NCBI GenBank assembly: GCA_016179745.1
Contig: JACPCP010000018.1
Coordinates: 9,258-73,257, forward strand
DNA length: 64,000 bases
Origin: Candidatus Omnitrophota bacterium
GTDB lineage: Bacteria; Omnitrophota; Omnitrophia; Omnitrophales; JACQLI01
Direction of reading: 5' to 3'
The translations under genes were made by a program, and so were the position numbers. A model generated the notes under the pieces. The model saw nothing but the letters and a program-made list of their open reading frames with translations. It was not told the DNA's origin and did no database searches. Shown in pieces: positions 4,416 to 54,815 of this stretch. The stretch's first letter is position 1. Each line of letters begins with the position of its first letter.

Positions 4416-4465
4416 AAAGGCGGGATGCGGCCCCGGAGAGGCTGCCCCGGCCGGGATTAGGCGGA
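4416..4465. repeat. 50-nt direct repeat, copy B (contains stop and last two codons of giant ORF 1)
   Basis: Matches 3080-3129 at 48 of 50 positions. Bases 4457-4465 (ttaggcgga) are the Ser-Ala-stop of the giant ORF on the minus strand. Confidence 0.9.
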
Positions 4466-10400: not shown

Positions 10401-13400
10401 CTGACCCCCGCCCGCGCTTCGGAGCGGGAGGCTAGGGTTGGCGTCCAAGCTGGTTTAGCCCCCTTAACAACCCGGAAGATACCGTGGCTTTCAAGATTAT
10501 GACGGATTTGGTCGGTGATTTTTTTTTGTCCCCCTGGCGTTGAAGGATCGATCACACCAGTGTTTACAGCTTTGAGAAGAGCCTCGACTGTTTTCGCCGG
10601 TTTCTGGTCTTGGCCTAACGACACTTGCCGGAGTGAATAGAACTCGTCGGTGTCCGTATCAAATAAGAGGTGACCGTCTTTTAGCATTTCGAGGAGCCAT
10701 TTCCATTGTTGGGTGGTCTTGAGCTTGTTGCTGCCGGCTCTCACTAGCGCCTCGATGAGTTCCAAATTGTGCAGGAGGACGAGACGGTAGGTGTCGTGGC
10801 GGACCCCCCTGACCCGTTCTTCAATAATCTGGTCAGGCCGACTCAAAAGCTCCAGTAATTCCCCCGAGTCATTCAATCCCTCAAACAAGGGATCTGGACC
10901 GACTCTTTGAAGCTGTGCTTCGAGGCGTAGTTTCGAGCGTACCGCGGCGAGTCGCAACAGCTCGAAATAAAAAGACGGCTCTTGAAATTTTCCAAAGCTT
11001 CCAAGATCGTTGACATCCTCTACATCAAAAAGCACTCCTTGGCGATCATCCCATTCTGCGGGATTCCTCTTGGCGAGAAACTTAAATTGAGAAGCCGCTT
11101 GCTCTTCTGCGATGCGTACCGGGGGCGTTCGATAGCCCCCCCGATATGGTAGAAACGGGGTTGAAGTTAGAAGCAGAAAGAGTGGAATAAAGAAGACAAT
11201 CCAATTCCTTTTTAACTCCGGTTTTAACCTCGGCATCGCGTCGAAGAATCGTCTCGCAAAGGGAACTCTTTGGGAATCTCCTTTTTGGGTCGTGAGAGTG
11301 TCGTCTTCAAGATTCCGCGCTTCGGAGCGGCGGAGGTCCGTGGGCCACTGACTTATCTCCCCCGGAAACGGTCCGTAAAGTTGCATATCTTTTTCCCGCG
11401 GGTCAAAATCAATATTGGACAATGTCTCAAATGTCAGCATTGCACTCCCAGAATAACGTAAGAAAAGATGTGTTTTGTTGTTTATCTTCCCCAAATAGAC
11501 ATGGAGGTAGTAGTCTCCTCCGAACGAACGGTCCTTACCGAATAGTAAATCTCCTTCTTTTATAGATTCCAGGACACTTTCATCCGCTGACTGGCGTGGT
11601 TTCTCAGAGTGAAATTTATTAAGCTGCTCGATGAGCGGAAGGGCATTTTCCCGGAGGCCAGATCTAAGTTCTAGCTCCAGTTCGTTCCTTCGTGACTCTA
11701 TTTGATCGTCAGTGAGGCCCGGCTCGGCGGCGCGGGTATTCCTTGTTATCACAAGGGCCGTTAACACGCTCCAAAGCGTAAGGCCGTCTTTGCCTTTTAA
11801 AACTGATGTTTTCGTCTGGTATTCCCCTGTTTCAGGGTTCCGTATAGTCTTTTCCAATTGGAATCCACCAGGGTTGAGAATAGCTGAAAATACCTCCTTT
11901 GCCTCGAAAGTCAGTAGAGTTTCGTCTAACAGCACAGAAAGCGCGTTCGCGTGTTTTTCCAGTTGTGATGTTAGATCTTGACTCCGTGCTTCGGAGCGGA
12001 GGACAGGACCCTCTCCGAGGTCGCCGGTAAGTGTGTCGAGGGAAGTAGAAATTCCCAATTTTGCGATTTTCTGATTCACCTCGGCTAATGCCAAGGAGGC
12101 GGCGTCAGCTCCCTCTTGGGTAAACTCCTTTTTGGCGTTGTCCGCAATCATCTCGAGAATGGCCTGACCTGTAATGACAATTAACCTGTTTTCATCACCC
12201 GATCCTTTCATTGCCGTAAAGATTCTGTCCCTAAAAGTAGTGATGCCGGGAAATGGCCCTTCTGATTGTTTTGCATCGTCAATGGCATTCCGAATATAGC
12301 CCTCCCATTCTACTGCCAACTTTCCAAGGCCAATGGCGTGCTTCCTAATTTCCTTTGTCGCTTCAGGAAACTGACTGGCAAGCAAACCGTCGGTTTCCTC
12401 CTCCAACATTCCTTCTCGCAACCAATATTTTGCTACCTCCTCAATCCGCTGATTTGTCGGTACTTCTCTGGCCATTTGCACGAGGGCGTTAGCTTTCCGG
12501 AAGTACGCTTTGGCCGCGGACAGGATGGCTTTTTTGATAGACGGCGACTCTGCGTCTGGAACACTCCGCCCTAGCTCCTTACCAAATTCAGGAAAATTAC
12601 CATGTTTCTTTCTTATTTCTCGTAATGTGTTAGGAAGGTTTTCCCAGTTCACGCCTGAGGCGCCATTTTGGGCCTCTGCGTCTGACAAAAGTTTGTTGAT
12701 AGGGAACCCCAACTCGCTCATCTTATCCATAAAAGTCCGCCATGCCTGTTGTTCTATGAAATCCACGGGGACGATGGCAGTCGCCCGCGCTTCGGAGCGG
12801 AGAGCCTCGTCTGTTTGGTTTCGAGCCTCCGTAGCAGAAGATTCGATTTGGCCGATTTCGTCCAAGAGCTCATCCGGAGATCTTTGAGAAGAGACAAGCG
12901 GTTTTGTCAAGAAAATAGAATCGAGAAGTTCTTCAAGCACGACAAGGGCCCTTGTGGCATCGCCCGATTCAAGGAGGCGCGCGGCTTCCTCGGATCGTTC
13001 CTTAAGCTCGGCCAGTTTCTGGCTTAATTCCAGGCTCTCTCTCGGGGCCAGCGCAATTGCCTGGTCAATTTTGGGCAAGACCTCCTCTTTAAGCGCCGTT
13101 AGCGCTTCCTCCGATTCAGTCGCCCGCGCTTCGGAGCGGTCAGGGAAGAGCTGGGGGAAATCGGTTTGAAGGGAAGCGATTGCCGAGGAGACTTCTTCCG
13201 GGACCTGGATGGGATCCATGAATCCTTGTTCGGCATAACCAGGGAATCTGCGGATTTCGTCAATCCCTTTTTGAATCTCCAGGATCGCCGTTGCCTGATT
13301 GAGAGAGGAGGCGGTGAGGCGAAAGGGACTTAAACTTACCACTTTCCGGATTCCGATTTTAGACAGTGATCTACCCTCGTTAAATTGTTTAACCAGTGAG

Positions 13401-15949
13401 CGGCCGCCCCGTTTTTGAGCCCGGCCGTTTTGAAGAAGGAGGATCGTTGCATCGTCTCTCAGGCGCCCCTCCTTGCGGAGCTCATCGACGATTTCCCTTA
13501 CATATCTTGTGTTTTCGCCCGTATTGGTTGCCTTGAGCTCAGGAATTATGTTTTCCGCACCGACGCCGGCTTTTAACATTTGGTCGGCAAAAAATTCTGC
13601 TTCAGGCACCTCAGTCTCAACGCCTTGTTTTAAAAGAGTGAAGGGGCGATACCACTCAGGCCGCTTTACAGGGCCCCGGCCGCTCGGGACAATAATGACA
13701 TCAGGGTTTTTGTCCTGCGCCTTCTTTGCGATCTTTGCAGCACCCTCGGCCGCCTCCCGATAACTTGAACCGAAAACGATGACAAGATCAAAAGGCCCTT
13801 CCTGAATCCAGCTTTCTCCTTCAAGAGGTTTCCACTTGTCGGTTTTCACGTCATAGACTTCCCTGGCCGCAAGAAAGTCAAAGAGGACCTGGGCGTTTTC
13901 GTCTAGGGCTTCTCTCTGTTCTGTTGCGGGCCCGGTTTGAGTAAAGTGACGGAGTTCGGAGCGGGAGAGGGGGAGTGCGACGGGAGCCGGGACAAAGGAT
14001 TCTTGAACCAGCCGGCTGGTTCCAATGGCAAAGCCCAGGGGTTTCCCGTCCAAAATGGGAATGAGCCGGTCTCCCTCCGGGTTCAATCGGAGCTCAGCCC
14101 TGCGGTCGGTTCCATACAAGCTCTGGCTGAAATTTGATGCGAATTTCCCCGCAGAGATTTTCTTTTCATGGGCCACAGTCGCCAGCCCCTCCAGAACGAC
14201 CCGGAGTTCACTTCGCTGCTTTGCCTGACGGGTGCTTGGGGTCCACATTCGGCCGAACCGAACTTCGGCAGGCTGAAAATGAGCCGCATCATCAAGGTTG
14301 GCCGTATCGAAAGCGGTTTTCTTTTCGCCGAGGAGGGCAGAGACGTAGTCCTCGGAATTGACCTTCTCCGTGATGTGGGGGGTCAGGATGGTGTAAGGAA
14401 TCTGCTTTTCACGAAACGTGTGAGAAAGGCCGGCCGTGTGGAAGCCGCCGGTGATGAGGATGGTAATTCCCCTCATCCTAGCCCTCTCCCCCTTGGGGGG
14501 AGAGGGGAGGGGTGAGGGGGAGGTAAGGATTTTTTCCACCATCGTCTCTTCACGCTGTTTGGCGAGTTCGTAAAACCGGAGGGCCTCCCCGAAGATCGAT
14601 TCCAGCGTGTCGGAGTTGGAGGGAACCAGCTTCCTTTTTCCAAGCGGCGTTCTCTCGTGGAGCGCCTCCAGTTCTACGAGAAAACGAATCAGCGGCCGCT
14701 CGTCCGGATTTTCGGTTTGGACTTTGGCGTAATCTTTTGGCGTGAGCTCCAAATCAAACAATCTTTCATAAAGCCTTTCCTTATGGACGAGCCCGACAAA
14801 CTTTTTGTCCTCTGCCTCACCGGAGACGGCGGACATGATTTTGTCAAAAAGCCTTTCGATTTCTTCAAAGAGCCTCCCGGCCTCGAGTTCACTCTGGAGA
14901 ATGGCGGCTTCGAGGTAGCGGGTGAAATCGGGATACTGCTCGAAGGCAAACCCTTTTTCGAGCGTGGCCCCGACAAGGCGTTCGGCGAGATAGCGGGGGA
15001 GATCGTTTCTCCGGAAGCCCGGGTCATAAACCATCCCTGATTGATAAGGAGAGAAGGAGAGATTTTCAAAACCTTCGACGAGGTCCCGATCGAGACCGAA
15101 GCTCTTTAGGGAACCCACGAGATTTTGCCGGTCCGCCTGCACTTTTTCGGGGTTGAGCTTCGCCTCGATTTCCTGCAGGCGGAGGAGCCGGATCATCTGG
15201 GGCCAATCGAGCTGGCTTTCAAAGTAGCGGATGTCGATGCCGAGGATCGACCGGGCCGCCCGCTCCAATTCCAGCGCATAGGAGAGGAGCTCCATCTGGC
15301 CCGAGTCAAAGGCCTCTCTTGAGCGGAGGAGTTTACGGGCCTCCTTTTCAAGAAGCAGGGTTTCAAGACGGTCGAGAGAGCCCCGGAGGCCCTTTGTGAA
15401 TTGGGCGGTGGCGGGCCGCTGGCGCATCACATATTGAAAGCTGGTGAGGTTCCTCTGGTAAAGCGCCGGGTCTTCGATTCCGTAAGCGGGGATGTCCCTT
15501 GTCGACTCGACCAGGAAAAGCTCGGCGCCGGTGAGCTCGCCCTTTTCGACGAGTTTCTCGGCGACACGCACGTTCAGGCGGTTGTCTTCAAAAAATCGGA
15601 AGTAATCGGGATTTAGCTTCTCGCCCGCACCTTCGATGAACATCGAATCAATGCCGTATTTCTCGTCGAGGAACTTCAGCAGGGCGTAGATTTTTTTCTG
15701 AGTTTCGGGATGAGAGTGGACGCTTTGAATATGAATGAGAGGAGGCGCTGAACCCTTTTGGTGATCCGGGATAAAGGCCTCTTCGATTTTCGCCAGCTCA
15801 GAGGGAATCCCCAGAGGAACGAAGGAAGAAACCATCGGAAGGCCCTCCGGCTGGGCCAATACCACAGGCGAAGGGATCAGCAGGGAGGCGAAGAAACAGA
15901 CCGCCACCGAGCCCGCTACAAACTTTTCACATAGCTTAAGTAACCGCAT
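4457..15949 (-). CDS. Giant modular secreted/membrane-associated protein 1 (3830 aa), punctuated by RSEAR motifs
   Basis: Uninterrupted ORF from ATG 15947-15949 to TAA 4457-4459. It has an N-terminal signal-like segment (VAVCFFASLLIPSPVVLAQP), internal TM segments, coiled-coil regions and a DUF218 module. It ends in ...IWRSA. Confidence 0.8.
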   Translation of the reverse strand: MRLLKLCEKFVAGSVAVCFFASLLIPSPVVLAQPEGLPMVSSFVPLGIPSELAKIEEAFIPDHQKGSAPPLIHIQSVHSHPETQKKIYALLKFLDEKYGIDSMFIEGAGEKLNPDYFRFFEDNRLNVRVAEKLVEKGELTGAELFLVESTRDIPAYGIEDPALYQRNLTSFQYVMRQRPATAQFTKGLRGSLDRLETLLLEKEARKLLRSREAFDSGQMELLSYALELERAARSILGIDIRYFESQLDWPQMIRLLRLQEIEAKLNPEKVQADRQNLVGSLKSFGLDRDLVEGFENLSFSPYQSGMVYDPGFRRNDLPRYLAERLVGATLEKGFAFEQYPDFTRYLEAAILQSELEAGRLFEEIERLFDKIMSAVSGEAEDKKFVGLVHKERLYERLFDLELTPKDYAKVQTENPDERPLIRFLVELEALHERTPLGKRKLVPSNSDTLESIFGEALRFYELAKQREETMVEKILTSPSPLPSPPKGERARMRGITILITGGFHTAGLSHTFREKQIPYTILTPHITEKVNSEDYVSALLGEKKTAFDTANLDDAAHFQPAEVRFGRMWTPSTRQAKQRSELRVVLEGLATVAHEKKISAGKFASNFSQSLYGTDRRAELRLNPEGDRLIPILDGKPLGFAIGTSRLVQESFVPAPVALPLSRSELRHFTQTGPATEQREALDENAQVLFDFLAAREVYDVKTDKWKPLEGESWIQEGPFDLVIVFGSSYREAAEGAAKIAKKAQDKNPDVIIVPSGRGPVKRPEWYRPFTLLKQGVETEVPEAEFFADQMLKAGVGAENIIPELKATNTGENTRYVREIVDELRKEGRLRDDATILLLQNGRAQKRGGRSLVKQFNEGRSLSKIGIRKVVSLSPFRLTASSLNQATAILEIQKGIDEIRRFPGYAEQGFMDPIQVPEEVSSAIASLQTDFPQLFPDRSEARATESEEALTALKEEVLPKIDQAIALAPRESLELSQKLAELKERSEEAARLLESGDATRALVVLEELLDSIFLTKPLVSSQRSPDELLDEIGQIESSATEARNQTDEALRSEARATAIVPVDFIEQQAWRTFMDKMSELGFPINKLLSDAEAQNGASGVNWENLPNTLREIRKKHGNFPEFGKELGRSVPDAESPSIKKAILSAAKAYFRKANALVQMAREVPTNQRIEEVAKYWLREGMLEEETDGLLASQFPEATKEIRKHAIGLGKLAVEWEGYIRNAIDDAKQSEGPFPGITTFRDRIFTAMKGSGDENRLIVITGQAILEMIADNAKKEFTQEGADAASLALAEVNQKIAKLGISTSLDTLTGDLGEGPVLRSEARSQDLTSQLEKHANALSVLLDETLLTFEAKEVFSAILNPGGFQLEKTIRNPETGEYQTKTSVLKGKDGLTLWSVLTALVITRNTRAAEPGLTDDQIESRRNELELELRSGLRENALPLIEQLNKFHSEKPRQSADESVLESIKEGDLLFGKDRSFGGDYYLHVYLGKINNKTHLFLRYSGSAMLTFETLSNIDFDPREKDMQLYGPFPGEISQWPTDLRRSEARNLEDDTLTTQKGDSQRVPFARRFFDAMPRLKPELKRNWIVFFIPLFLLLTSTPFLPYRGGYRTPPVRIAEEQAASQFKFLAKRNPAEWDDRQGVLFDVEDVNDLGSFGKFQEPSFYFELLRLAAVRSKLRLEAQLQRVGPDPLFEGLNDSGELLELLSRPDQIIEERVRGVRHDTYRLVLLHNLELIEALVRAGSNKLKTTQQWKWLLEMLKDGHLLFDTDTDEFYSLRQVSLGQDQKPAKTVEALLKAVNTGVIDPSTPGGQKKITDQIRHNLESHGIFRVVKGAKPAWTPTLASRSEARAGVRVFRIDSSIELTEPEAKRKQPEIDGWLHQYAKLGGNQKFDKLASFLREVHSKEQVNKSFLASRVRPVLGYDEPRLNSIVLGLVQDIWLTGTGVERPKKARDQLVDYIAHATRVLLTRDFVVHLVEEALDGNTGAKEELVGWSFLISAGFIDTELVDKILERVTPDNSIEVRNRASEVMEQFIHASVSSTLRPDVLLDYLTRLKDLEGPFWRFEHPISVLEVAITRNPDLSTDARITKFVRELRNQEGATRFETQLNNLLEKLKSRSEARMSTIQKVLLTATAAVLCGAGCIASKRTSETLQQILNKPSPQSTVVATEQKAGPRHEPIPPDDAVKRDLMNRLFDLYDRIQRQKQRLRNSSPALEGEEFLLDGPITLIFEVVRLVPNLDGRDAEALKKELEKMEKALGELENDVDKIVSEENKKKARRKLDRLKKKMEGLSDDLDLDVEIIDEGRRISVSVPKGISEVEQEMERLRRQLFGEIPEAEEEVEGGELVVMPELEKEKLTPRPIEAPRPEEEPLPEDLKKEFKALELVAEEGKRVVEKKQASGKTTEKGLKPQEPVELLEPPLGEEQVVREKPEPTEKAVPSQEKPQEITVESRQPPDNKKEELLRRARDLKQRLVHLSEKEKREPAPPELAPEEETPAVSPATIPTEVTVTLTRVIEEIIEKEVDLPGIEKDMEELEKAIEELESRYRKLPQPEREKLIRWVLDRLERDGKGPGVRIVNEEEVVREVSIKDIVDEIRRILQEEKPKPGPLRLTPLPKTPPEKSAPKEAQPLDKQDLMERALRLSDRIQSNRDKLRKQLSPLEDQEQLREEEAQDLPLILELLKLVPELGGGDAEKLAAELNQLDTELAEIARAIDEFLAEEDPFEAERKLDRLQKKTDEVRLRITRLVVNLGGEVPFVLPEEIAKIKDELERLRQELEARKRGEEVPWEKSTRPSGQTPATPFFEIPSFVFNGIGYFFIFAVALVAAILIVTSQRVWDFLYWDVYGRIKDAFVRTVFWVKEQFEGFLYWISKSYRPRVIGEIVTFYSPDAPGIPYSSSETADYLSLQDGRIRSIYGGLSFLEKMTNSLTQQGLGLSFFDEMRREASAIKSAYESVFYQIDALLEENGLLLTESAFRRLVNSNDDRSDELRRLFGLQKSEAYSLLGSPVPAFLKALTNRLEELNRLTDEFERKFEAALPSFRDAEIRRAKSNSLWQLSLAEIAKSDSWDTKYERLLIEAELNLGAFASGLNEAQAKISPVRENMGEWRALQWGALSRLALLQRRLRGTHPELSDQLKPIIDHLSSPRSEARAAESKTSRVRFEKRADGSRVVTLKDVTLTAPASPSTNLSWKLRALRFPVTGSTDSDSLTLFSSLGDFANQDRIGAALPVDIIHLKDLSVGLPQDKKTFTGVLQASLEKQGRPVPAIQASRTGSDVKIHFDSIQIPVPPDKPEALTRALRAFGVPEETLNKVRAQFKEVETLATVIANALPRSEARQQKPGKEVQPLTRFYAQSLLLIDWVRRIVQAMQESRKKGGILPSEPLIPMDLFDPVEREAALLAAQGIGQRELMDQLLHPKPDTKSFRLIQKALKALGIKLGAEFDLQRDLPQKSEALKTVRKLSESLSKKDLPESRSELRDEGPLAVESAGLLTSPEQLEKMIGQSAGVVRLESPAGKIFVGKTRPFVKPRGAALILPGLNQLALQIPAGFFPEGWSASNALSLVINIANVTEGIEIFDPRINDELPELAHAMILALRENEARNLGIQEQIDEVRPSPKTPFGAQLVKGENRPARSAVFLEGVPTVEETVARLSPALLLGGNVHVTLVIPYGVPADPVRLESLRQEIGKILGSLGGSKKVEILQPIQPGPDGVAQLISEMSDQYEKWAAAQPGAYIEPEFAINVPGALRSELGIDEALQKIRGKKPIVFIERFSGLLEKSRAALLAAKHSQDALPANLLRGFRQEGRFVIVEKENLDQFVPADQYERAFKALLQIWRSA
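6530..9595 (-). other. Module of giant ORF 1: Met plus hydrophobic anchor, E/K-rich coiled coils with an internal ~110-aa duplication, then a second TM segment
   Basis: The module starts MSTIQKVLLTATAAVLCGAGCIASK immediately after RSEAR. It contains the repeated unit ...DRIQ..R..LR...LVP.L.G.DAE.L...RKLDRL.KK (about 9061-9415 and about 7730-8080). A TM segment GIGYFFIFAVALVAAILIV follows. Confidence 0.6.
13139..13948 (-). other. DUF218 (YdcF/ElyC-like) module of giant ORF 1
   Basis: DLVIVFGSS...IIVPSGRG...EAEFFADQMLKAGVGAENIIPELKATNTGENTRYV follows the DUF218 signature order. The module is bounded by RSELR (13949) and RSEAR (13124). Confidence 0.6.
14360..15949 (-). other. Signal peptide plus TraB/GumN/Tiki-like N-terminal domain (paralogous to the N-terminus of giant ORF 2)
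   Basis: IHIQSVHSHPE...YGIDSMFIEGAGEKLNP...YGIEDPALY...ILITGGFHTAG (GGFH at 14438-14449) is colinear with the same motifs in giant ORF 2. The fold assignment is tentative. Confidence 0.4.
14469..14520. repeat. Palindromic element family A, copy 2 (in frame in giant ORF 1)
   Basis: Sequence is cccctcatcctagccctctccccc ttg gggggagagggg aggggtgaggggg. It encodes SPSPLPSPPKGERARMRG. This stretch is absent at the homologous point of giant ORF 2 (...KSQTAIVLAGGFH). Confidence 0.8.
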
Positions 15950-16147: not shown

Positions 16148-16188
16148 TCAGAAAGAAGCAAAAAACGGAAAAAGATAAGGAGGAGGGC

Positions 16189-29756: not shown

Positions 29757-30343
29757 AGAGACAGAACTGGCATTGGGACATTAACCTCTCCTATGGGAAG
29801 ATCAAAGAAATTTTGAAGCGTGAAGATGATCCCCGTTTCCCGAGATTGGCAGGGGCCCTCCTTTCCCGTGTTCCGGAGCCCGCCGAGGTCTTTGGGCTCA
29901 TTTCTCCAGCCGCCTTTTGCCGGCGCTACCGGGCGATCGAGAGAGAAATCCTGTCCGACGAATGGACAAGAGAGAAGGCCGCCTTTTGGAAGGCCACCTG
30001 CCTCCGACTCTCAAGAGAGCTTCGGGAACGGGGTGAGAAAATCAGAAAACCGGGAAAAATCAAATTGGACGATTTTGACCGAACGCTCGTCTCGAAAATA
30101 AAGCAGTGCCGGAAAAACGCCCTCTTGTCTCAAAAAGAATTGGCCCAATGGATGGGCCTGAGCCAACAATACATCTCAGGAGTCGAAACGGGGCGGGAAA
30201 GGGTCACGATCGATTTCCTTAAAAGATTGGCGGGAATGACCCATCAACCGATCGAAATCGTCTTTCAAACCAATTATTCTCCGGAAATTAGGCGGAGCGG
30301 GCGAGGGCGGCCCGGATCTCGGGGTCGAGGGCGAGGCGGTTAA
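29753..30343 (+). CDS. Protein with C-terminal XRE-type HTH (possible cognate antitoxin/regulator)
   Basis: LLSQKELAQWMGLSQQYISGVETGRERVTIDFLKRLA is an HTH_XRE core. Its start overlaps the AbiEii stop. Its 3' end overlaps the giant ORF 2 3' end convergently by 56 nt. Confidence 0.55.
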   Translation: MKRQNWHWDINLSYGKIKEILKREDDPRFPRLAGALLSRVPEPAEVFGLISPAAFCRRYRAIEREILSDEWTREKAAFWKATCLRLSRELRERGEKIRKPGKIKLDDFDRTLVSKIKQCRKNALLSQKELAQWMGLSQQYISGVETGRERVTIDFLKRLAGMTHQPIEIVFQTNYSPEIRRSGRGRPGSRGRGRGG

Positions 30344-33300
30344 AAAATTCCGCAATCTGAGCGAGCCCCCTCGGAGTGACCCGCCGGAATGCCAGGGGAT
30401 TCCTGGGGTCCTTTTCGAGCATCTCCCAGAGAAATTTCGAGCGGTGAACGGCTTCAATCAGCCGGATAAAATCAGGTACCCTCAAACCGGAAAGACCGAT
30501 GACGGAGGGTTCGGCGAAGACGCCAAACCCGTGGAAATTACCGGCGTTTGTCAAGTCCAGGGGGGTGACTGGCGACAGGAAGAAGCCAGCGTCTTTAAAA
30601 TCAGGAGACGTTCGGCTGATTCGACCCGGGTTCAAAGGATCATTTTCTCGATACGGCAGCGGAACTACGCCGGGGGCAGCGGCCGCAATCTTGCTAAAAG
30701 GGATTTGCGCCTCTTTGCCGCCCGCAAAGGCAATACCGACCCTCACCTCTGACCGCACAGCCTCACGCACAAAATTCTGAATTTCTTGAATCGCCTCATG
30801 GTCTGCAAGGTGTTTCGATAGGGCGAGGTCCAGAACCGTAGCGCTTGAGGGCGGGATTCTGAAGCTTGGATCAAAGATGCTGCTCCGGGCCGCCCGATTC
30901 ACGAGCGAGGAAAAAAGAACAGGATTGCGCTGGAGTCCCAAGAAGATCGCCCGGGCGTTTTCAGAGAAACGGGCCCGCTCTCCAAATTTCAGGGCCTCTG
31001 CCGTCGAGACCCGCTCCGTGGCGGCGCCGAGGATGAGAATCCTCGAGGCAACCCCCCGGAAAAGATCTTTAATCCTGACGGGCTCGATGACGGCCGGGTC
31101 TATTTTTAGAGTTGCCGCTAGGATAGCCGCCGCCTCTTCCGCCGCTTGACCAAACCTTTCCGAATCAAGCCACTTGAGCATTTCCTCGGGCGTTTCCTGT
31201 TTCATCATTTCAGCCGCAAGATTCACAAGGGACTTCCGAACCTGGTCCCGCACGATTTCTTTTCGGTTCTTCGATTGTTTTTGCAGCCGGTCGACGAACC
31301 GGTCAAAATCCCCGTTCTCCGTGTAAAGCCGGACCATTTCCTCTGCCGTCAAATCCGGGAGGAATATCTGAAACTCTCCAGCCGCTTCCCTTCTTATGGG
31401 AGCGGCGTCTCGCACCTCCGCCCGCTCCCTGGGCGCCTCCGTTTGGAAAGCCTCAGACTTGGCACTTTCAGAAATGGGAGGGTGACCGGGCACTCCTCCC
31501 AATGCAGTTTCAATCGCGGCACGGAGCGCGTTGCGTTCATTTTTTTCCCACTCACCTAAATCAGTGCGACGGGTCTCCCGATGGAGTCTCTTGAGAGTCC
31601 GTGAAAGGAGATCCCGGCCTTCCTTCTCGCCGTAGGCCTGATACAGGCCGGCGAAGATATCTGAGTAATCGGAAGGGTAAGTAAGGATAAGGTTTCGCAG
31701 TCTAATCAAGATAAATATGAAACGCCTGCCGGAGACCGGCAGTCCCACATCGACAACCCGCACCGTCTTGGAAGAGGCTTTGAGATTGAGGGAGTTAGGA
31801 TCGCGGATTGTCCACCGCCCCCTTGTCTTTTTAAGAATCTGGAAGAGCCGATGCGAGGATTCCCGGGTAACACGACTGGCCTCCTCCTCGATTCTCTCTG
31901 GTTCCGTTTCCTTAACTTGATCCAGATAGCTACTTAGAGAAAGGTAATTCGGTTCATCAATCAATTGTTCAGTCCACATCCCGTACCTTGGACTCCAGGT
32001 CCCCAGGGTCTCGGCGCTGGGGTCCTCCGGTTCATAGAGTTCAATGAGGTGGTCGACCTCCGTTCCCGCATCCCTTTTCCGGGGGAACCAGTTCAGGGCC
32101 ACGGAATAAGGCGTTTCCCCATTTGTCACGTGGATATCCAATCGAAAAACACGCTTTTTCCCGCCGGCATTTAGAAATCGGATTGAGACTTCACGAACTT
32201 CCTGGAGAGGAATTACAACGCCGAACAGGGCCCAAAGGGTTGACTGGATGAGATAGGATCGTCGAAGCGCTTGCTCGACCCTGCTACGAAATTGCTTCTC
32301 AAGCGCCGGGCTTTTATCAGATGAAAGTTCTCCGACAGGAGTGAATTGAAAGGCCGCCTTCGTCTGCGGAGAGTCCCAGAAACTGTTCAGTTGGCTTCGA
32401 AAATAGGTTAAGACCTCCTCCGCCCTCTCACTAATTTCTTCAGGCATTCCGTAACGCCGTCTCCCGTAGAGCTTCCAATAGGTCAGAGCAGACCGAAGTT
32501 TAAGATAAAGGAGGTGACTACCTTCGATCCGGGGATCGATCGAAATGGTTCGGACCTGCTCTAGGAGAGCCATTATTTCCTGGGGGGCGGATGCGTCCCT
32601 CAGTTTTTGAACCAGTTCCTGATTTCGTATCTCAGCACGGGGTTTGGAGTTTTCTTCAAGAAATGCGATCACGCCCGCCAGGGTTGCCACTGAAGGAGAG
32701 AGCGGACCGATAAAACGAGGGGCGGTTTCCTTCTTAAGTCTGTCAATAAGCTCCCGAAGCCAGCCCCTGAGCGGGGAACGGAAGTTCCGAGCGCTGACAT
32801 AAGCCTCCATCGTGATAAGAAACATGGCAATATCTTTAACTTCTCTTTCGAGGCCGCGTTCCCAAATCCAACGGAATACCTCGTCATCTTTTATCGTATC
32901 CTTATATTTTTCGATGTCCCGATGTTGGGGGGTGGATGCAATGGCCCAGTCCGTGAATTGGAAGCCGCCGCCCTTACGGAAGTGGATTTCCTCCTCCCCG
33001 AGGTCACGGTGAAATACGCCTTTATGGTGGAAGAGCTCAAGCGCCCGAGCGATTCTTAGAACGTCACTTAAAACATCTTTTTCATCCCGTCCGTGGCGTG
33101 GACGAAATCGGGGGTTCATCCGGTGAGCCGCCGTTTCGCCTTCAATCATCTCCTCAATCAAGTAGGTCTGGCCGGTCTTGGGAGAGGGACGTTCTGTGTC
33201 CCACCCGGTTCGTGCGGCCGCTTTTTGGATCTGGGCAGCTTCTGGATCCGTCAGGACGCCGGAACCGACAAGGCGGGGCAGATGGGGGGCCAGTTCTTCA

Positions 33301-45300: not shown

Positions 45301-48300
45301 CGTCTCCGGTTAAGCTCCTCGGCGATCTCCCTCAGACCCTTAAGAGTTTCATCGGTGCCGTCGAGTTCCTCTTCAATATTCAAATAGAGACGATAAAGGA
45401 ACGCACCAAACGCCGCACGTTCTTTACGAGTTCCTGAGTCTACCCGTTTGCCGGAGAGCGTTTCTTGGATACCTCTCATTTCCTGAATAATCTTTGCAAG
45501 CTTGAGCCGCTTTCTCCAGTCCTCTTTCTCTTCTTCGAGGAGGTCGCTTTCAATTCGGTCCGCCAACTTTTTTAGATCATCTATTGCGAATTTTTCCTTT
45601 CTCTGAATTGTGGCAAAAGCCGGACCCCCCTTCTCAAGGACCAACACACGGAAATAGCGTTGGATATCGCGCAGGATTTCGTTTGGCTTCCTCTGCCGCA
45701 CCTCGGAGCGGGGGGGAGATTCGAGTGTTTCGGCCTGATCGAGGATCTCTTTGATGGGCTGGGCGAGGGAGGGCTGGGAGCGTGCAAGCCGATCGGACAA
45801 AAACGGGATATAAAGCCAGAAGACTTTCCTCTCGGCTCTGAATTTAGCAAGATGGGTTCGGATTTCATTTACCTGACCGAGAAACTTTTCTTTCTCTTTG
45901 AACTTGGAGGCGCCTCGAAGGCGTTCTTCGATCAGGGCCTCAAGCATTGACTCAAATTCGATTTCGGCCTCGGTCCACTTTTCATAATCCACGGCCTCTT
46001 GGACAATCGAATCGGCTTCGAAGCCGCTTAGAGAGAGTTTTTGGTGAGTTTTGACATAGAGCTGACGCAGGGTCTCCAAATCAGTGCGGCTTGCCGCGAG
46101 GGCGTTAACGGCTTCACGGTTCAACTGTTGAATGAATTCAAATTTTTGGATCACCCGCTTTTCCCAATCGGTGTATTGTCTCCCCGAGCGAGCAAACCGG
46201 ATCGCCAAAGGTCCCTCTGTGTAGCTTTCCGAATCGTCGCGCCAGCGTTCGATCGTGATTGGAACGAGGGTTCGTTCTCGAGGGTCATAAGGCCCCGTTG
46301 CGCTCAGGAAGATATCAATGAACTTGTCAAACTCATCCTGAGGATGGGCTGTGCTCTTGACCTCCTCCAAAAGTTCGCTGAGATACCCAAAGAAATCAGT
46401 GATTGCTTGGATTTTTACTGAAGGCGGGGGAATCAAGATAGGGACCTCCTGCTCAGCGGGGGAAACCGGGGAGGCTGGTTCCGGCGGTAAAGGTGCCACG
46501 GTTTGGTTGATGATCCAGGGACTGGGAAGCCTTTTGGGTCGGCGGAAGAGGCGGGCCACGGGGACGGTCAGCGCTGTGAAAAGTTCGAGAAGAATAAAGC
46601 CGGCGAATCCTGCAAGCAAAAGAACCCCGTTTCTGAGAAAACTCATGAGCGCAAAGGGATCCCCATAGCGGCTTGTCTCGAGCATCATGACCACTTCGCC
46701 CTGAGGGGGTTGCGTAATCTCTGAGGATTTACCCTGAGGAATCTGCGTAATCGCCGGGGCTCCAGCGTCATGAAGTGAGGTCTCTTTAGGTTCGCCTCCA
46801 GGCGTTTCAACTCCGCTTCCTGGTTGACCCCGGCCCGAATGATCAGGCGGCATTGAATCTCCGGCCTTCTCCCGCAGCTCCCTCGCCGTATCCAACATCC
46901 ATTCCGGCGTTCCCTCTCCTTCAGTGAGCATCTGATTTATCTCTTCTTCAAGCTTGTTAACCGCGTCTTCGATTATCTTAATAAGCTCAGTAAGAGAAAT
47001 CACAATCTCAACTTTCCTTTCCGTAGATGTCCGCTCGCGAAGCTCGCGAAGCTGGCGAAGCTGGTCAGGTTCCCGCTTAGGGCGTCGCACGACTTCCCTC
47101 TTGGGTAGTTTTTTCATGAGCTCTTCCAGGCGATTTAGCTTTTCTCTAAGCTGGTCCAGCTGTTTTAATAACCGATCGATCGTGTTATCGTCCAAATCGA
47201 GAATCTTTAGCTCCTCCAGCACACTGTCCAGCACGTCGTCCATCCCTTCTAGGTTCCACAACGCACCGATGGCGGGGTACAACTTCGAGCGCAATTCCAA
47301 GATGCGCCGTTGTAACTCCTTCATCTCCCGGAAAAGCCGTTCCTCCTGGGACTCGGCGGGCCGTTTTTCTCCCAAAATATCAAGCTGAGAATATTTAGGC
47401 GCGCCTTCTGCACCGGAGGGAGCATCGGAGGGATTGGGGGCTGTTACCTGAGATAGCATCTTTTGAATTTCATCAAACGGATTCTTGGGGGGAGTATCTG
47501 GAAAACGAATAAAGGGACCGTCAGGTCCTTTCAAATCCAGTTTTTTCCGCTGAAACACAGGCCAATCAACCTTTTTGCCGGATTGGTAGATAGGCCTTAA
47601 TGCAGGCTCAAGTAGAGTTAACAGCTCCTGGGCTTCCCGGAGGAGGGCACGGATATTTTCTTCCCCCCAAGAGCGTTCTCTATTTTCATAACTTTCTTTT
47701 AGGCTCGCCATGATCCGATCCAGCTCTTTCGCAAGTGGGACGAGGCGGCTGCGGTCGTTCGATGGAATCCAGGGGAAGAAACGAGACAACCTATGTGCCA
47801 CATCCTTCGCAAACGCGAGGACTACTTCCGGGCTCGCCTCAGGTTCTTCCGGTGTTAGCGGGGGAGGCTCCTCTATGCGTTTCTCACCCGGCCAGTCACC
47901 TCCGGGCAGCACCTCCGGCGTTTGATCCGGCGGTTTCAGGGTGCTGACTGGCTGCGGCTCCTCTTTGGATTGGGAAGACGGGGGCGCGACACGTGTTCCG
48001 GAGGCCCCTTTTCCTGCCGACGCTTGTGCTCTAGACGTCAGGTCTTTGCGAGCTTGGGGCGCCGGTTGGTGCGGCTCTGATTTTTCCGGGGCCGTTCCCT
48101 CAATAGCCGGGGGCTTTTGGACCTTTTCCTGCTTAAGGTGTCTCGTGGCTAACCGGAGGTCCCGGCGGGAGGTAATCTTGCCTTCTTGCACTTGGCGGAG
48201 AAGCGATTTTTTTTCCTCTTTCGTGGTTTTTTTCGCTTCTTGGATTTTGTTTTCCAGTTGTTGGAGCTTACGGAGGTACCGGTGCATCTGGTGGGCTGCT

Positions 48301-51300
48301 TTCCGGATGGCGGAATCCGGGTCATTGAGCAGAACCTCGATGTCTTTCGGTTCCCTAGCGTTGGCAACCTGGTTAAACTTATCCTGGTGAGTCTCTTCCG
48401 GCGAACCTCGGACGGGATTCAAAGAACTTCCCAGAATAAGAGCAGCAAGGCCGACGCCGACCACTTTTTGCCAAACCGAAGGGCCCGAGATCGCCTTGCC
48501 CCCGCCCAAAAATCGGTCCGGGCCTTGCAATGACGAGGGTTGTTCCATGGCCATCTCAGTGCCGGCAGGGGAACCGGAAATCGCCGTATTATGCGCAAAA
48601 ATGCCGTTGCCGATGAAGTTGTGGGTGCCCTGGACTTCGATATCGTAGACATGCTCCAAGCCCACATAGTCGATCGAGACAATCCGGTCCCAGAGGAGAT
48701 CAGAAGCCGGGTTGGAAAAGGGGATAGGCAACACTACTCCCAACGTTGCGTTGCCTGTTCCCTTTTCCTGCGGAGCGGCTTGGGCGTAGGCAGAAGGGAG
48801 GCTGAGTAGTCCTCTCCAGGCAGTTGTGGTATACTTTGCCGCATGAAACGACGAAACGGTTTCAACCGCATTGTAATTGATCCGGCCGTTCGCTTCGGGA
48901 AGCCTTGTATCAAGGGGACCCGAATTACGGTTGGAGACGTCTTGAATCTCCTGGCGGCGGGCTACACGGTGGACGAAATCCCCGAGCAGTATCCTGGGGT
49001 CACCAAGCAGGACGTTTCCCAGGCGATCGAATTTGCGAGTGATCTGGCTGAGCATCCCGCCAAAGTAACAAACCTCACATAGCGCGTCTCTTTCTCTGTG
49101 AAGATTCTTGCCGACCACTGTGTCCACACCGATGTGGTTCTGGCTTTGAGAGAGGCGGGGTTCGAGGTCATCCGCGTCTTTGAAAAGGGCATGGCCGGCG
49201 CCCCCGATAAGGATATTTATGAATACGCCCAGCGGCATTCCATGGCCGTCCTCAGCTACGACTTCGACTTTGGAAATGTGGCCCGATTCGATATCCTCCG
49301 TTCGCACGGGGTTGTCCTGGTCTATGTTGAAAGGATGACGAGATCCAAGATTATCGAGCGCACGGTCGGTTTCTTTGAAGAGAACCGCCGGCGGAATCTC
49401 TCCGGAAAACTCCATCTGATTGAGCCGCACGGGACCGGCACCTGGCCGGGGTAAACCCGCCGGCACCCCGATCTCATTGCCGACCCTTAACTCCTTCACC
49501 TTGATCCAGGCCCCAACATTTCTCGACAAGCCCGGAGTCAGGTGATACACTTTTTCCAGTGACGGAAAGGAATTACGCATGAGGAAGAACGGGAACAAAG
49601 CACGCAGCCTTAGAAAAACAAAACCGCTGGTCCCCACAAAGCCTGACGTTGGCCACTTCTCAAAATTTGCCTCCCGGGCGGGAGGAATTTCCTTGCCGGA
49701 CAGGTTCCGGGCCGCCGTCGCCTTTGATTCGGAGAAAAGACCCCGTTGGTTTCTCTTCGATATGTTTGCTTTTTGGGAGCTCCTTTGCCGGATTGATAAC
49801 GTACTCTCCAAAACTTTGTCTGACAAAGAGTACTGTTCAACAAATCCCGTCGGTGGCCTCATTGACGAGATCGAAGGCCGCTGGCCGCTCAAAGAGGAGT
49901 CCAAGTCGGCCGTCCGCCGCGAATACGAACGGGCACTGCGGGACATAGCCGCTGGCCGATTCTCCCGTCTCACTGTGTGATCTATCAGTTTATCTTGACT
50001 CGCCAGGCGGAGGAGGACCTGGCGAGATTTCCCGATTCCCTGTCGCACCCGATTAGAAAAAAGCTTGCTTATTTTCTCTCGGCCTCCGACCCCATGAAAT
50101 TTGCCAAGCTCCTTGTGAACCTGCCCCCTGCGACCCACCGGTTCCGCTTTGGAGACATTCGGATGAAGTTTTTCCGGGACAAGAATATTTTCTACATCAC
50201 GGGAATTGACCACCGAGGTAAAGTCTACCGATAGCGGCACCCCGATCTCATCGCCAACCCTCAACTCCTTCACCTTGATCCAGTTTCCTTCTTTTGCCTT
50301 TTGACTTTTGCCTTTTTCCGCCACACTGCGTGACGGATCCGCCAAGCTGTGTGGCGGAGACTTGACGAGATACGGATGATTCGCCGTGGTCTTGATCGAT
50401 CTCCCGGAGGCGGTCGTCAAGCGGTAGACAGGCTTCACTCCCATATCAAGCAGGGCATTAATTCTCCGTGGCTCAATCTTCCCGGTTTCTTCATTTAAGG
50501 AAAGAACCCGGTCTCCGGGCCTGACTTCGGTAATGGGGATTTCTTCAAGCCTTTCGTTATCCTGACGTCCCCGACGCGTGTCATCCTGAGTCCCGCGAAG
50601 CGGGGCGAAGGATCTCAAACCCTGAGATTCTTCGCCCGCCAAAAGGCGTGGCGGGCTCAGAATGACGGGGTTGGTGTTGCGTATCACCGGCAGTCTCGTA
50701 TCCCCCGTGACGCAAAGGCCTTCCGGATCCTCGGAGCTTCTCACCTCGGTTCTCTGAAGCTCTTCGAGCGAAGCAGACCGCGCCTCGGAGCGGCGGCGCG
50801 CAATTTCTTCACCGAATATCCGGCCAATCTCTTTTTCTATCAGACCGGGCAAGCTGACATTTGCAGGGACCCCGTTGCGAAGGAAAGGATGACCGTAGAA
50901 GCTGCCTCCGAGCGGGACGGCCTCAATCCGATCGTAGTCATCCGTGCCTCGCACACGCCTGATGGCGAAATTACGTATACGGGTGTCTGGCTCGGCTTCA
51001 TAGGCTTGCAGCATCAACAGTTCTATTTTTGTTGGGTCTCCTACGATTGCCTGGGCAATCTCCAGAGCCAATTTTTGCAGTTCAGTTTTCTGGGGTTGAG
51101 TGGCGGGCTCTTCTTTGAAGAAAACCCACCCTTCGAAGATGCGGGTAATTAGGTTAGCGTCGACCGGAACCTCCTCTTCGCCTTCATCCTTTTTCAGAAC
51201 AACTTTTTCCTCGCCGGTTTTCACCCCGTTTAATTCTTCAAAAGCCTTGCGGAGCTGGCCGGCAAGTCCGGAATCCGTGACCGTGAATTTAAACCCGCCC

Positions 51301-54300
51301 TCTTCGTTCTTTTGAGACATTACGGCCCCGCTCTGATAGGCCAACAACACTTCTTGGGCCGCGAGGTCAAGGAGATGCCCCTCTGGATCGCTCACCTCCG
51401 GCCGTTTTCCTCTCAGGAATTTCAAAAATGGGATAACCGGATCGACTTGGGCGCGCTGCAGAGTTCCGGCTGAAGGGGCCGGAGGAATGTCGGGTGCTTG
51501 GGTCGGGACCTTAAAGTCGGTTTTGATAATTTTGTGATAAAAACGGGGGCCCGTAGTGGATACGGTTGGCTTACTTAACGTGATATCCTGCCAATGTAAA
51601 TCAGAGACTTCAGCAGTCCTGGGGTTGACCTTCCATGTCACACGCACCGCAGGGACCGGCGTTTCCTGATAAGTAGCTTTGGATGGTACTTCGGTCAGGA
51701 ATGTGCTCCATAGCTTATCTGCAAGGGCTTTCAGAACATGATGACTTGAGCCCCAGAACGCCTTACTGAGGCGGAATAACTCATACACAGCCAAAGCCTC
51801 AGTTTCTTCTAATTGAATCTCGAGGCCATTCTTTTTCAGGGTCACCTTGCCGGTTCCGTCCACAGAAATAGTGCCCGGCACCTCTCTGAGGATCCCTTTC
51901 CCCAGCTCATCTTGCCCCTGGATTTCAAACGTAAGTAGATCGTCGCCAATTGTTACGCTGACATCCCTGCCACGGTACTTCATCGTAGTAGCGAACCCCC
52001 GCACCTCGGCGCGGAGCATGGACTTGGCATTTGCCTTTAAAAGTTGGGAATTTGCCGCTGTCATTATTGCCTCGGTAGATGGGGAAAACACTCTGTTCCC
52101 TTTTGTAATTTCGTAGACTACATGAACGCTTCCGGCATCCTGACCCTCATCATCTAGAGCGACGATAAACTGTCCGTCAAAGCGCCAATAGGTCCCCGAA
52201 TTGTCCTCGAGCAGATCTCCTTTTGTAAGGATCTGAAGGATACCTCTACCTGATTGCTGAGCTTCGGCCATCTCTGAATCAAACGCCACTGGGCGTTCTT
52301 TCCTCTCTTGCTTTATTAAAGCTTCTCTTCGTGCATCTCCGTTTCGATCCTCAAACCGGCTCCCCCGAAAACCCTTCTCATAAGTTTTCCCCAAAACCTC
52401 CTGCGTCTTCCGCACCTCGGCGCGGGCGGAGACGACGGGTTTTTCTGGAGAAAAGGGGACAGAGCCCCTTAATTGTTCAAGGACGGCGGAGGCGACGGCA
52501 CTTTCCGGAGACTGGTCCCGCAATTCCGCCCGGATCGATTCGGGAAGCGAGGCCGCAATGCCCCCGATTTTGGCCCGGAGTTCATTTCTAATCATCCCTT
52601 CCGGCGGAGACTTTGTTTCCGGGCTGGCCGATTTTTGAGTGACTTGCTCGATCGACTTCGCAAGAGCGCGGACTTCCGGCCGTCCCGCCAGGAGACCCGC
52701 CGGAACTCTCCCCGCAAGTTCCTCAAGCGTTTCTCGAACAGCGCCGGGTTTGGCCAGCACTTCAAATTCGGATCGTAGCGGGCGAGAAGGAAGGGCTCTG
52801 GTTCGGAGGAAATCCAGGATTTCGGCTCGGGGTCGTGAGGTTGGAAAAAGCGAAGCGCCGGCCAGGTGCATGAGGGCGGCGGGTTTTGGTTGAGGGGTTT
52901 CGCCCAAGAGGCGGGAGACGTTTTCGACCGTGAATTCTTTTCGGTCCGCCAATTGCCGGAGGCCGGAGACGAAGGAATTAAATTGGATTTGAAATTTTCC
53001 CCAGAGGGAATTGACGGCCTCCTCGGCGGAGCTCTCGAGGGCCTTTTCCAGCTCTTTTTGGATTTCCTCCCTCGATCTAGAGGCGCCGTCGGCGCCGAAT
53101 TTGCCGTGGTAAATTTTTAAAAGGAGATCAATGTAACGAGTGTATTCGCCGGCCTCACCGGTGCGGCCTTCGTCGGCGAGCTTGCGAATCACCTCGTCAC
53201 GCCAGAGTTTGAGATTCTGTTTGAAGTCCGGCTGATTGAGCCCTGCGACGAGTCGCTCCGTCGAATGTCTCACGAAGGCGTCGTAAAAGGTCGTCTTGAG
53301 ATATCGCTTGTAGGAAAGATCGCCTTTCATCACGGCCTCGTAACGCTCTTTTCCTTCGAGCGAACGGATCCTGGGCGTGACGACGGCGTAAGAATAGCCC
53401 GCTTCCTTCAAACTTTTCTCAAACCCTGTTGAGTGAAACCCTCCGGCAAGGACAATCGCTGTTTGGCTTTTCGTTTTCTTGAGAAGTTTTTCGAGATTTT
53501 CGTGAAACACCCGGTCCCTTTCGAGGACAATCCGGTAAAATTCAAGCGCCGGCCGGACCGCTTCCCGGTTAGAAGGATCACCCAGGAGTTCGAGGTAGGA
53601 ATCCGGGGCTTTTTGATAGGCGTCGAGCCGGTCTCGATCGAGTTCGAGACGGACGAGATCCTTGAGGAAGCGGAGTTTTTGGTATTTGAGGGCGAGCGAG
53701 CGCTCCTCCGGTGTTTTGATGAGGGACTGGTCAGCCTCTGAGAGAAAGGTCTTTAGCTCGTCAAAAAGTTTTGTGCCCCTGATCGTCGAAAGGGTTTCGA
53801 CTTGGCCGATCAAGGCTTGCATTTGGGGACTCAATTTGGGTTTGAGACCGAGGGGCCTTCCTGCCTCAACAAGATATTTCAGGAATTCGCCCAAATCCAT
53901 TTGATCGGTGACAAAGGCCTGAGTGCGCCGGTTAAATTCCATCTTGCCCTTCTTGTCGAGCTGGGCGAGGTGTCCTTTTCGGAAATCTTCCGCCAGTCTT
54001 CGGACCTCAATTTCCAACTGCTTTTTGGGCAGAGCGGAACCCTGCTTGAGGGAATGGAGAAGCTGGGCCAAGTGGGGATAGTTGATTTCAGAAGGTGCGG
54101 CGGCCTTCAAGGAGGAGGCCAGGTAATTCAGGAGCTCAAACAAATGGGAGCGTTCATCTCTAAAGGCCTCCACCTTTTCGTGAAAGGTATTCAGATCCGG
54201 CGAAAAAGCCTTCTTCCGTTCCCGATCCAGGCCTGCCTTGATCTCCGCCAATTGCTTGAGAAGTCCGTCTTGATTTTGTGCGGCCCTCAAGTAGGCGAGG

Positions 54301-54815: not shown

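Follow-up and report, generated by a model that had tools for sequence, protein, structure and literature searches.

Two giant open reading frames (ORFs), ORF1 and ORF2, lie in the 64,000-nucleotide stretch of Candidatus Omnitrophota DNA analysed here (the window; contig JACPCP010000018.1 of assembly GCA_016179745.1, positions 9,258 to 73,257 of the forward strand). The reading favoured here, which is given a probability of about 60%, is that both proteins begin with the same enzyme-like head of ~450–500 residues, representing an unannotated, Omnitrophota-wide family, and that this head is an exported His/Glu hydrolase carried on a scaffold of head, variable body and tail. The head probably belongs to the Ere/TIKI/TraB (EreA/ChaN-like) hydrolase superfamily, and its best-supported placement is nearer to the erythromycin esterase (Ere) branch than to the TraB branch. 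This superfamily takes in esterases that act on antibiotics, proteases that cleave Wnt and Ras, and proteins of pheromone control.

The N-termini of the two giants are paralogous, as a preliminary description of this DNA had proposed. BLASTP aligns the first 700 residues of the two proteins over 542 columns at 23% identity (94 bits, E 5e-24), and the full-length comparison pairs amino acids (aa) 21–542 of ORF1 with aa 20–499 of ORF2 (97.4 bits, E 1e-22), whereas 312 of 500 shuffles of the ORF1 N-terminus gave any match at all, the best reaching 35 bits. The motifs originally quoted in support of this relationship are all present in both translations, at the coordinates given for them (Table 1), with GGFH falling exactly at 14438–14449 in ORF1 (aa 501–504) and 53433–53444 in ORF2 (aa 458–461). 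Likewise genuine is the described arrangement of an early His, a Glu and a late G-x-x-H, which is invariant in 143 aligned family members. The full-length comparison gives no second match at E ≤ 1e-3. A coiled-coil and transmembrane module had also been described as common to both giants; the best match outside the N-terminal domain has E 0.16 and nothing credible appears there at E ≤ 10, so this module is not a shared homologous part and was rejected as such.

The head defines a large family. A phmmer scan of 1.84 billion (1.84e9) cluster representatives, from clusters at 50% identity, recovered 7,677 proteins at E ≤ 1e-3 (6,168 at ≤ 1e-10 and 1,077 at ≤ 1e-30), i.e. a family of at least 7,677 clusters. 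Within the top 150 matches, the head starts within ~100 residues of the N-terminus, and the proteins are mostly 1,000–7,700 aa long, the shorter ones being mainly contig-truncated. Head-bearing proteins are mostly 1–8 kiloresidues in length and derive nearly all from Candidatus Omnitrophota. In a search of one genome per GTDB species, 80 loci were found, the named ones nearly all in metagenome-assembled genomes (MAGs) of Candidatus Omnitrophota, often with 3–5 paralogues per MAG; labels from elsewhere are confined to one MAG each of Elusimicrobia, Sumerlaeota and Planctomycetales. When ORF1 and ORF2 were compared by BLASTP with 150 family members, coverage stood at ~115–154 over the first 500–600 residues and was essentially nil beyond the head, except for a few members at the C-terminus of ORF2; the head is therefore the sole widely conserved part. 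Sharing with ORF2 is confined to aa 1 to ~750, falling to 26 subject proteins in the aa 701–800 bin and zero past aa 800, plus, sparsely, the last ~300 aa. The earlier view that the giants have conserved ends and different cargo is thus correct, and extends to thousands of proteins.

AlphaFold2 (AF2) predicts an identical order of strands and helices in the two heads, with a predicted local distance difference test score (pLDDT) of 84 and a predicted template modelling score of 0.72 for ORF2, and a pLDDT of 75.7 for ORF1. In both models, a hydrophobic helix at the N-terminus and then a disordered linker precede five strands in parallel-sheet β-α-β order, with one extra N-terminal strand (60–66 in ORF2) and a helical insertion. 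In the first half of the catalytic lobe of ORF2, DSSP assigns strands to aa 60–66, 74–80, 106–109, 113–115 and 158–162, and in the second half to aa 452–458 and 475–481. The intervening lobe is all-helical (block-mean pLDDT 72–96), and the distance that spans it, from E163 to R433, ranges from 189 to 427 aa over the family. In the 143-sequence alignment, H82, E110, E163, Y427, R433, G458, G459, H461, P481, Y492 and W538 (ORF2 numbering throughout) are 100% conserved, and conservation reaches 95% or more at D80, A81, Q88, G111, P125, E142, Y168 and D434. The spacing from His to Glu is 28 residues in 142 of the 143 members, and that from Arg to His is 28 in 127. D80/H82, E110, E163, H461 and P481 each fall right after a strand in the predicted models, and invariant polar residues directly after strands mark the usual active-site edge of a parallel α/β sheet.

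The link to Ere is modest in strength yet exact in detail, with five functional positions colinear at identical spacings. EreC has catalytic residues E47/H50, E78, R261 and H289 (PMC7979712), while H85 is paired with E113 in Bcr135 and H3902 with E3930 in RRSP, the latter having E3900 two residues before the His (PMC6254334). The His-to-Glu spacing is 28 in EreC, Bcr135, RRSP and the head family, and the Arg-to-His spacing is 28 in EreC and the head. The catalytic order and spacing of EreC (28/28) are hence kept in the head as the invariant H82, E110, R433(-D434) and H461. D80 provides an acidic residue two positions before H82, and R433 is followed by D434 as R261 is by D262 in Ere; the position of EreC E47 is occupied by Q79, with D80 one residue later.

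Profile comparison recovers the same correspondences. The Ere profile was built from eight sequences, comprising EreA from a Klebsiella pneumoniae plasmid and Ere-family genes from plasmids of six genera (Sphingobium, Skermanella, Bosea, Cupriavidus, Bacillus (two) and Streptomyces). With hhalign, the N-terminal part of the head (aa 60–175; aligned aa 71–113) matches EreA 39–81 at P 0.0049, placing H82 on H50 and E110 on E78, and the C-terminal part (aa 415–505) matches EreA 246–290 at P 0.024, placing R433-D434 on R261-D262 and H461 on H289; column-permuted decoys attained the observed scores in one and two of 150 cases, respectively. When the helical lobes were cut from both profiles, a single colinear alignment of 134 columns resulted (P 0.0068, 0/150 decoys, z 4.1), which additionally pairs V-G-I-E-D of the head with V-G-I-D of EreA.

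Predicted structures point in the same direction. In a Foldseek search of the PDB with the ORF2 model, the EreC structures 6xcs (E 0.30, probability 0.54) and 6xcq (0.38) had the top probabilities and BcR135 (2rad) was also listed; the ORF1 model listed BcR135 as 2rad and 3b55, and a search of the viral database BFVD with the ORF2 model placed a 'TraB family protein' among its two joint-highest-probability matches. These superfamily matches have E values of 0.3–2.4. Lists for the whole models are dominated by coiled-coil and helical-bundle matches to the helical lobe, and no other recognizable α/β-enzyme family recurs in the top 50. EreC and BcR135/136 combine a helical minor lobe with an α/β major lobe (PMC7979712), and the TIKI core is a six-stranded sheet with five parallel strands (PMC6254334). 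The predicted head matches both the TIKI core and the major and minor lobes of EreC, the models having five strands in parallel-sheet order and, at strand ends, 2His/2Glu-type residues, as expected for the TIKI fold.

Several results weigh against this assignment. HMMER searches of Pfam with either N-terminus gave no family at E ≤ 1, including PF01963 and PF05139, and 28 core-only members gave no match to TraB (PF01963), Ere (PF05139) or ChaN (PF04187) at E ≤ 10. NCBIfam returned no match to the head, and PDB chains searched by phmmer and with both the full-domain and the core-only profile returned none that is relevant, including EreC, BcR135 and BcR136. The first motif of the head is Q-D-A-H82, lacking the Gly of G-x-x-H or G-E-x-x-H, and ORF1 has Ser at the position of Asp80. 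Against the eight-sequence Ere profile, the hhalign 'probability' is only 2–7% (P 0.005–0.02), and a reversed-template control for the C-terminal part gives P 0.049. All Foldseek matches have E > 0.03, none reaching 1e-3, and TM-scores of 0.1–0.24, which are low because the helical lobe dominates the score. Against a profile of Escherichia coli YbaP (TraB family), the hhalign probability is 3–12% and the N-terminal part aligns out of register. The C-terminal part places R433..H461 onto R228..H252 of YbaP at P 0.043, on an alignment of 12 sequences that is shallow because the homologue search returned close relatives only. YbaP carries GSIH41, IVE67 and GALH252, with a His-to-Glu spacing of 26 and an Arg-to-His spacing of 24; in the head, G458-G-F-H461 fits G-x-x-H and E110 is invariant. 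The preliminary description had placed both N-termini in the Tiki/TraB group and looked to a significant profile match as the check; HMMER gives none with Pfam, NCBIfam or PDB profiles. What stands of that identification is the superfamily, reached at modest strength through the erythromycin-esterase branch, which is better supported than the TraB branch.

Conservation at the opposite end of these proteins is of a different kind. The last two residues are [AS]-A in 113 of 157 head-bearing proteins (83 with Ala and 30 with Ser at position −2), against ~1.5% expected from composition, and the 44 exceptions are mostly short and probably contig-truncated. This ending occurs in none of 24 other ORFs of the window and in two of 107 ORFs flanking related loci, and these controls led to rejection of the tail as a general feature of the proteome or of stop-codon context. 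The ending closes an amphipathic motif of ~24 aa, with hydrophobic residues at −22, −19 and −18, Leu at −15 (75/113), Ala at −9 (69/113), Ala at −6 and Ile/Val at −5, and the true C-terminus is the top-scoring motif position in 104 of the 113 proteins. The tail of ORF2 scores 19.5 bits with the position-specific scoring matrix (PSSM), the best of 8,152 positions (shuffle maximum 13.3). Both giants have the RSA terminus initially noticed; ORF1 shares only the [AS]A end and not the 24-aa motif (PSSM −6.6), and the closing residues of its nearer relatives are ...AASA in P0276 (998 aa) and ...ETAA in P0280 (690 aa). A polyprotein with repeated tail-like junctions was also considered and rejected, there being five internal PSSM matches in 418,047 positions versus one in shuffles. 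The longer C-terminal domain of ORF2 (Table 1) was found by jackhmmer in 55/113 and 47/115 members, nearly always with the match reaching the C-terminus; it has no Pfam match, and jackhmmer gave no link to ORF1 or to the short members. Proteins with head and tail of only 685, 690 and 998 aa were found. Since such short (~690 aa) proteins exist, the giants look like expansions of cargo between two ends, with the short versions resembling the ground state. The 685-aa protein (P0015; locus L002, 10001–12058) is a stand-alone head and tail ending in ...FLSAA. Some 2.7 kb from its gene, the other strand encodes a 4,732-aa giant (L002, 1–7327) that has APH, His_Phos_1 and methyltransferase domains, with menaquinone-related genes between the two.

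Export of the head is probable from the N-terminal sequences. AF2 places a helix at aa 6–29 of ORF2 and disorder at aa 29–47, and in ORF1, too, a basic start leads into a hydrophobic stretch and then a small-x-small site (VLA/QP), a pattern kept in homologues. Cys is scarce, with four residues in the 3,830 aa of ORF1 (two of them in the signal sequence) and four in the 8,175 aa of ORF2; this amounts to 0.05–0.10% in the giants and a family mean of 0.10%, compared with 1.2% in 17 neighbouring genes. Such extreme depletion is consistent with export, including export of unfolded proteins. Two internal transmembrane segments are predicted in ORF1 and six in ORF2, even numbers that would weakly suggest one side of the membrane for both head and tail; this topology comes from crude hydropathy scanning, which counts against leaning on it. 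Sub-threshold Pkinase, HATPase_c and AAA_16 matches in ORF2 (32925–33170, 36207–36527 and ~38560–38670 (−); aa 7216–7297, 6097–6203 and 5382–5418) lie between the fifth and sixth predicted hydrophobic segments, the part of ORF2 to be expected in the cytoplasm should the head lie outside it.

A mechanism can be proposed by analogy. Each giant would open with a Sec-type signal sequence followed by the head, whose α/β lobe would present D80-x-H82, E110, E163 and G-G-F-H461 at the C-terminal ends of its strands, with the inserted helical lobe of variable length contributing Y427 and R433-D434 from its last helix. By comparison with EreC and RRSP, the His82-Glu110 pair and His461 might position and deprotonate a water molecule, which would attack an ester or peptide carbonyl, with Arg433 stabilizing the oxyanion and the helical lobe serving as a substrate-binding lid. 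The head may act on an ester or a peptide. It is followed by a body of 0.1 to >7 kiloresidues, with no detectable similarity among members, and then by the [AS]-Ala-COOH tail.

Some members of the superfamily, such as HopBA1, are not enzymes, and this speaks against taking catalysis for granted. It is unlikely that the head is mainly a non-catalytic module for retention, anchoring or secretion recognition, comparable to the N-terminal retention module of LapA-type adhesins, substrates of type I secretion systems (T1SS) or to the TPS domain of two-partner secretion; the [AS]A tail would then be an uncleaved C-terminal secretion signal, the body threading out C-terminus first while the folded head tethers it. 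Constant ends around arbitrary cargo fit modules serving export, the depletion of Cys resembles that of proteins crossing membranes unfolded, HlyA of E. coli, a T1SS archetype, likewise closes with ...TLTASA before its stop, and ChaN and PMT are non-enzymatic superfamily members (PMC7979712). However, 100% invariance of a full catalytic-type set in 143 members is unexpected for a purely structural plug, and non-enzymatic TIKI members have lost such residues (PMC6254334). T1SS substrates also lack the N-terminal Sec-type signals that head proteins have, several internal hydrophobic segments are predicted in the giants, and no ABC, HlyD or TolC genes occur in the window or recur upstream of the 80 related loci. 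A coincidental likeness to Ere and TIKI, with the head forming a new α/β fold family, enzyme or binder, that has its own His/Glu/Arg site, appears rather improbable. It would account for the want of significant HMMER, Pfam and PDB matches, for Foldseek E values all above 0.03 with TM-scores of at most 0.24, and for hhalign probabilities below 10%, but it would leave to chance the five colinear positions with their 28/28 spacings, decoy counts of 0–2 in 150, the appearance of this one rare superfamily in three independent Foldseek lists in which no second α/β family recurs, and a two-lobe architecture that is the same as in EreC and BcR135.

Two further readings assign the head a more specific target. 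That it is a cis-acting maturation protease, cutting the giant at repeated junctions like a viral leader protease or the MARTX CPD, seems the remotest of those considered: the superfamily does include the sequence-specific endopeptidases TIKI and RRSP (PMC6254334), and C39 and S8 proteases near the N-terminus have been proposed to process other Omnitrophota giants (West-Roberts et al. 2023), but the closest relatives of the head by alignment are esterases rather than proteases, tail-like motifs do not recur internally (five matches, as against one in shuffles), and no sequence is common to the bodies of members, so no conserved cleavage site is evident. Also improbable, if slightly less so, is that head and [AS]-Ala-COOH tail form one functional pair, in which the head binds or processes the free tail of the same or a neighbouring molecule. 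Were this so, it could close the molecule head to tail, link molecules into fibres, or serve as a completion check that reserves export for giants translated in full; cargo of any size could be inserted, and the arrangement would constitute a new generic 'bracket' system for building and quality-controlling giant exoproteins.

An exported hydrolase head remains the preferred reading, and comparison with known systems delimits it. Ere enzymes (EreA–D and Bacillus cereus BcR135/BcR136; PF05139) share with the head an α/β major lobe and an inserted helical minor lobe, as well as a colinear His, a Glu 28 residues on, V-G-I-D/E in the third strand, Arg-Asp, and a His 28 residues further. They are metal-independent, water-activating hydrolases (PMC7979712) and the best partners of the head in both hhalign and Foldseek. 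In contrast to them, the head has no Pfam match and ~20% identity in the aligned cores, carries Q-D-A-H instead of G-E-x-x-H-G in the first motif and A-G-G-F-H instead of A-H-N-x-H in the last, and has a larger helical lobe; it is probably exported and forms the N-terminal part of proteins of several kiloresidues, while Ere enzymes are soluble and ~400 aa long, and a macrolide is not an established substrate. The TIKI/TraB/PrgY/GumN group (PF01963; E. coli YbaP; MARTX RRSP) resembles the head in its strand-His, strand-Glu, second acidic strand end, Arg and G-x-x-His and in its parallel β-sheet core, and many of its members are extracytoplasmic, membrane-tethered and peptide-acting; it differs in giving no Pfam match, in the YbaP spacings and in the misregistered N-terminal alignment.

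Giant proteins of Omnitrophota have been described previously (West-Roberts et al. 2023, 10.1101/2023.11.21.568195; 2026 preprint, 10.64898/2026.06.07.730766). They resemble ORF1 and ORF2 in phylum, in multi-kiloresidue length, in being mostly unannotated, in N-terminal signal sequences and internal transmembrane segments, and in their proposed location at the surface or envelope. The published focus is on proteins of at least 10 kiloresidues, some exceeding 30 (Archaeovorin, Dockerin-type), with SecA_DEAD, C39 and dockerin domains; SecA_DEAD, C39 peptidase and dockerin/TSP3 are absent from Pfam scans of ORF1 and ORF2. The N-terminal regions of Omnitrophota giants are described as generally without identifiable domains (West-Roberts et al. 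2023), and word searches of both sources found no mention of an Ere/TIKI/TraB-like head, nor, in the 2026 preprint, of a conserved C-terminal tail. In a literature search for any two or more of Omnitrophota, erythromycin esterase, TraB, Tiki and ChaN, none of the ten top-ranked papers listed mentions Omnitrophota. MARTX toxins and LapA-type T1SS adhesins are architectural analogues only: they too keep terminal modules constant around variable cargo, are very large and cysteine-poor, and have a C-terminal signal ending in small residues (HlyA ...TASA). MARTX cargo includes the TIKI-fold effector RRSP, whereas in the head family the TIKI-like module is the constant head and not a swappable part; moreover, the head family has no sequence similarity to these proteins, no RTX repeats were noticed, its N-terminal signal is of Sec type, and no T1SS genes lie nearby.

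On balance, these comparisons favour a known hydrolase superfamily, represented by a divergent, large and unannotated family, in a new use as the constant head of a giant-protein scaffold. Giant Omnitrophota proteins are a recognized annotation gap, and a large class among them, comprising 7,677 clusters or more, now becomes searchable by its signal sequence, Ere/TIKI-like head and [AS]A tail, with a candidate catalytic site of five named residues. A simple evolutionary model follows, in which a head and tail protein of ~690 aa was enlarged by insertion of cargo. The [AS]A end offers a practical test of completeness for giant ORFs in fragmented assemblies, and the Ere/TIKI/TraB superfamily would gain a big, divergent, exported branch.

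Table 1. Coordinates of the giant ORFs and of the features described in the text (positions in the window; a slash marks the putative cleavage point).
Feature	Coordinates	Strand	Details
Giant ORF1	4457..15949	(-)	3,830 aa; divergent relative of ORF2 within the head/body/tail family
Giant ORF2	30288..54815	(-)	8,175 aa; putative signal peptide, followed by a conserved head, an unrelated body and a conserved tail
ORF2 aa 1–32, N-terminal signal	54720..54815	(-)	Basic N-terminus, hydrophobic helix, VWA/NP; signal peptide or signal anchor, cleavage putative
ORF2 aa 57–164, first half of α/β catalytic lobe	54324..54647	(-)	Strands ending D80-x-H82, E110, E163
ORF2 aa 165–448, inserted helical lobe	53472..54323	(-)	Last helix has Y427, R433-D434
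ORF2 aa 449–505, second half of catalytic lobe	53301..53471	(-)	Strand, G458-G459-F460-H461, helix, strand ending P481, Y492
ORF2 aa 506–700, helical extension of head	52716..53300	(-)	W538-R539-D540; conserved in ORF2-type subfamily
ORF2 His82 codon	54570..54572	(-)	Proposed general base; 143/143 members; aligned to EreA/EreC H50
ORF2 Glu110 codon	54486..54488	(-)	His82 partner, 28 residues downstream; aligned to EreA E78
ORF2 Arg433 codon	53517..53519	(-)	Proposed transition-state stabilizer; 143/143 members; aligned to EreA R261
ORF2 His461 codon	53433..53435	(-)	GGFH motif; 143/143 members; aligned to EreA H289
ORF1 aa 45–545, paralogous head	14315..15817	(-)	H78, E106, E159, R466, H504; from BLASTP and AF2
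ORF2 C-terminal domain	30291..31280	(-)	~330 aa; common to ~40% of complete members
ORF2 last 24 aa	30291..30362	(-)	AQIAEFFNRLALDPEIRAALARSA; family tail motif ending [AS]-A-COOH
ORF1 C-terminal R-S-A codons	4460..4468	(-)	Protein ends ...LLQIWRSA
Motif pair 1			ORF1 HIQSVH / ORF2 FIQDAH (translations)
Motif pair 2			ORF1 YGIDSMFIEGAGEKLNPDYFRFFED / ORF2 YGIDLVALEGGEGELDPTLFRTFPD (translations)
Motif pair 3			ORF1 YGIEDPALY / ORF2 VGIEDWNLY (translations)
Motif pair 4			ORF1 GGFHTAG...LTPHI / ORF2 GGFHSTG...VTPRI (translations)

Recognizable domains in the bodies of the two giants are few. The only Pfam match in ORF1 is DUF218 (YdcF/SanA/ElyC-like) at aa 721–850 (13400–13789 (−), E 3.8e-08), which starts ~170 residues past the head, and ORF2 matches only Intein_splicing in addition to the weak HATPase_c, Pkinase and AAA_16 regions. 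The Hint/intein-like domain of ORF2 spans aa ~1420–2077 (48585–50558 (−); Intein_splicing 1.3e-19) and ends in ...GIFAHN/T, and no clear N-terminal Cys or Ser splice residue was seen; instead of an intein that splices, the domain may represent an autocleavage module of the bacterial intein-like kind. Inside this domain, two 49-nucleotide direct repeats (49461–49509 and 50235–50283), 94% identical and 774 bp apart, duplicate the peptide WIKVKELRVG(D/N)EIGVP and flank an in-frame, low-complexity segment of ~240 aa that has two of the four Cys of ORF2. This segment looks like the product of an insertion or duplication event.

Between and around the giants, the window contains ordinary housekeeping genes, including those for PAPS reductase, ATP sulfurylase, two PLP enzymes, BioB/F/A/D, FabG, FabF, MnmA and RnfC/D, together with an AbiEii/HTH pair, a Fic gene and a DUF4143 ATPase. 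In the 3 kb upstream of the head genes at related loci (L003–L082), uvrC-like and murJ-like genes each recur at 13 loci, probably because synteny is conserved within a single orthologue group. No other gene recurs there as a candidate partner of the head, and secretion genes are absent. A 199-aa ORF with no Pfam match (16027–16626 (−)) precedes ORF1 on its strand, at a distance of 78 bp. The Fic-domain gene (55022–55975 (+)) is divergent from the start of ORF2, and an HTH_3 ORF (29753–30343 (+)) downstream of the AbiEii gene converges on ORF2 and shares 56 nucleotides with its 3' end.

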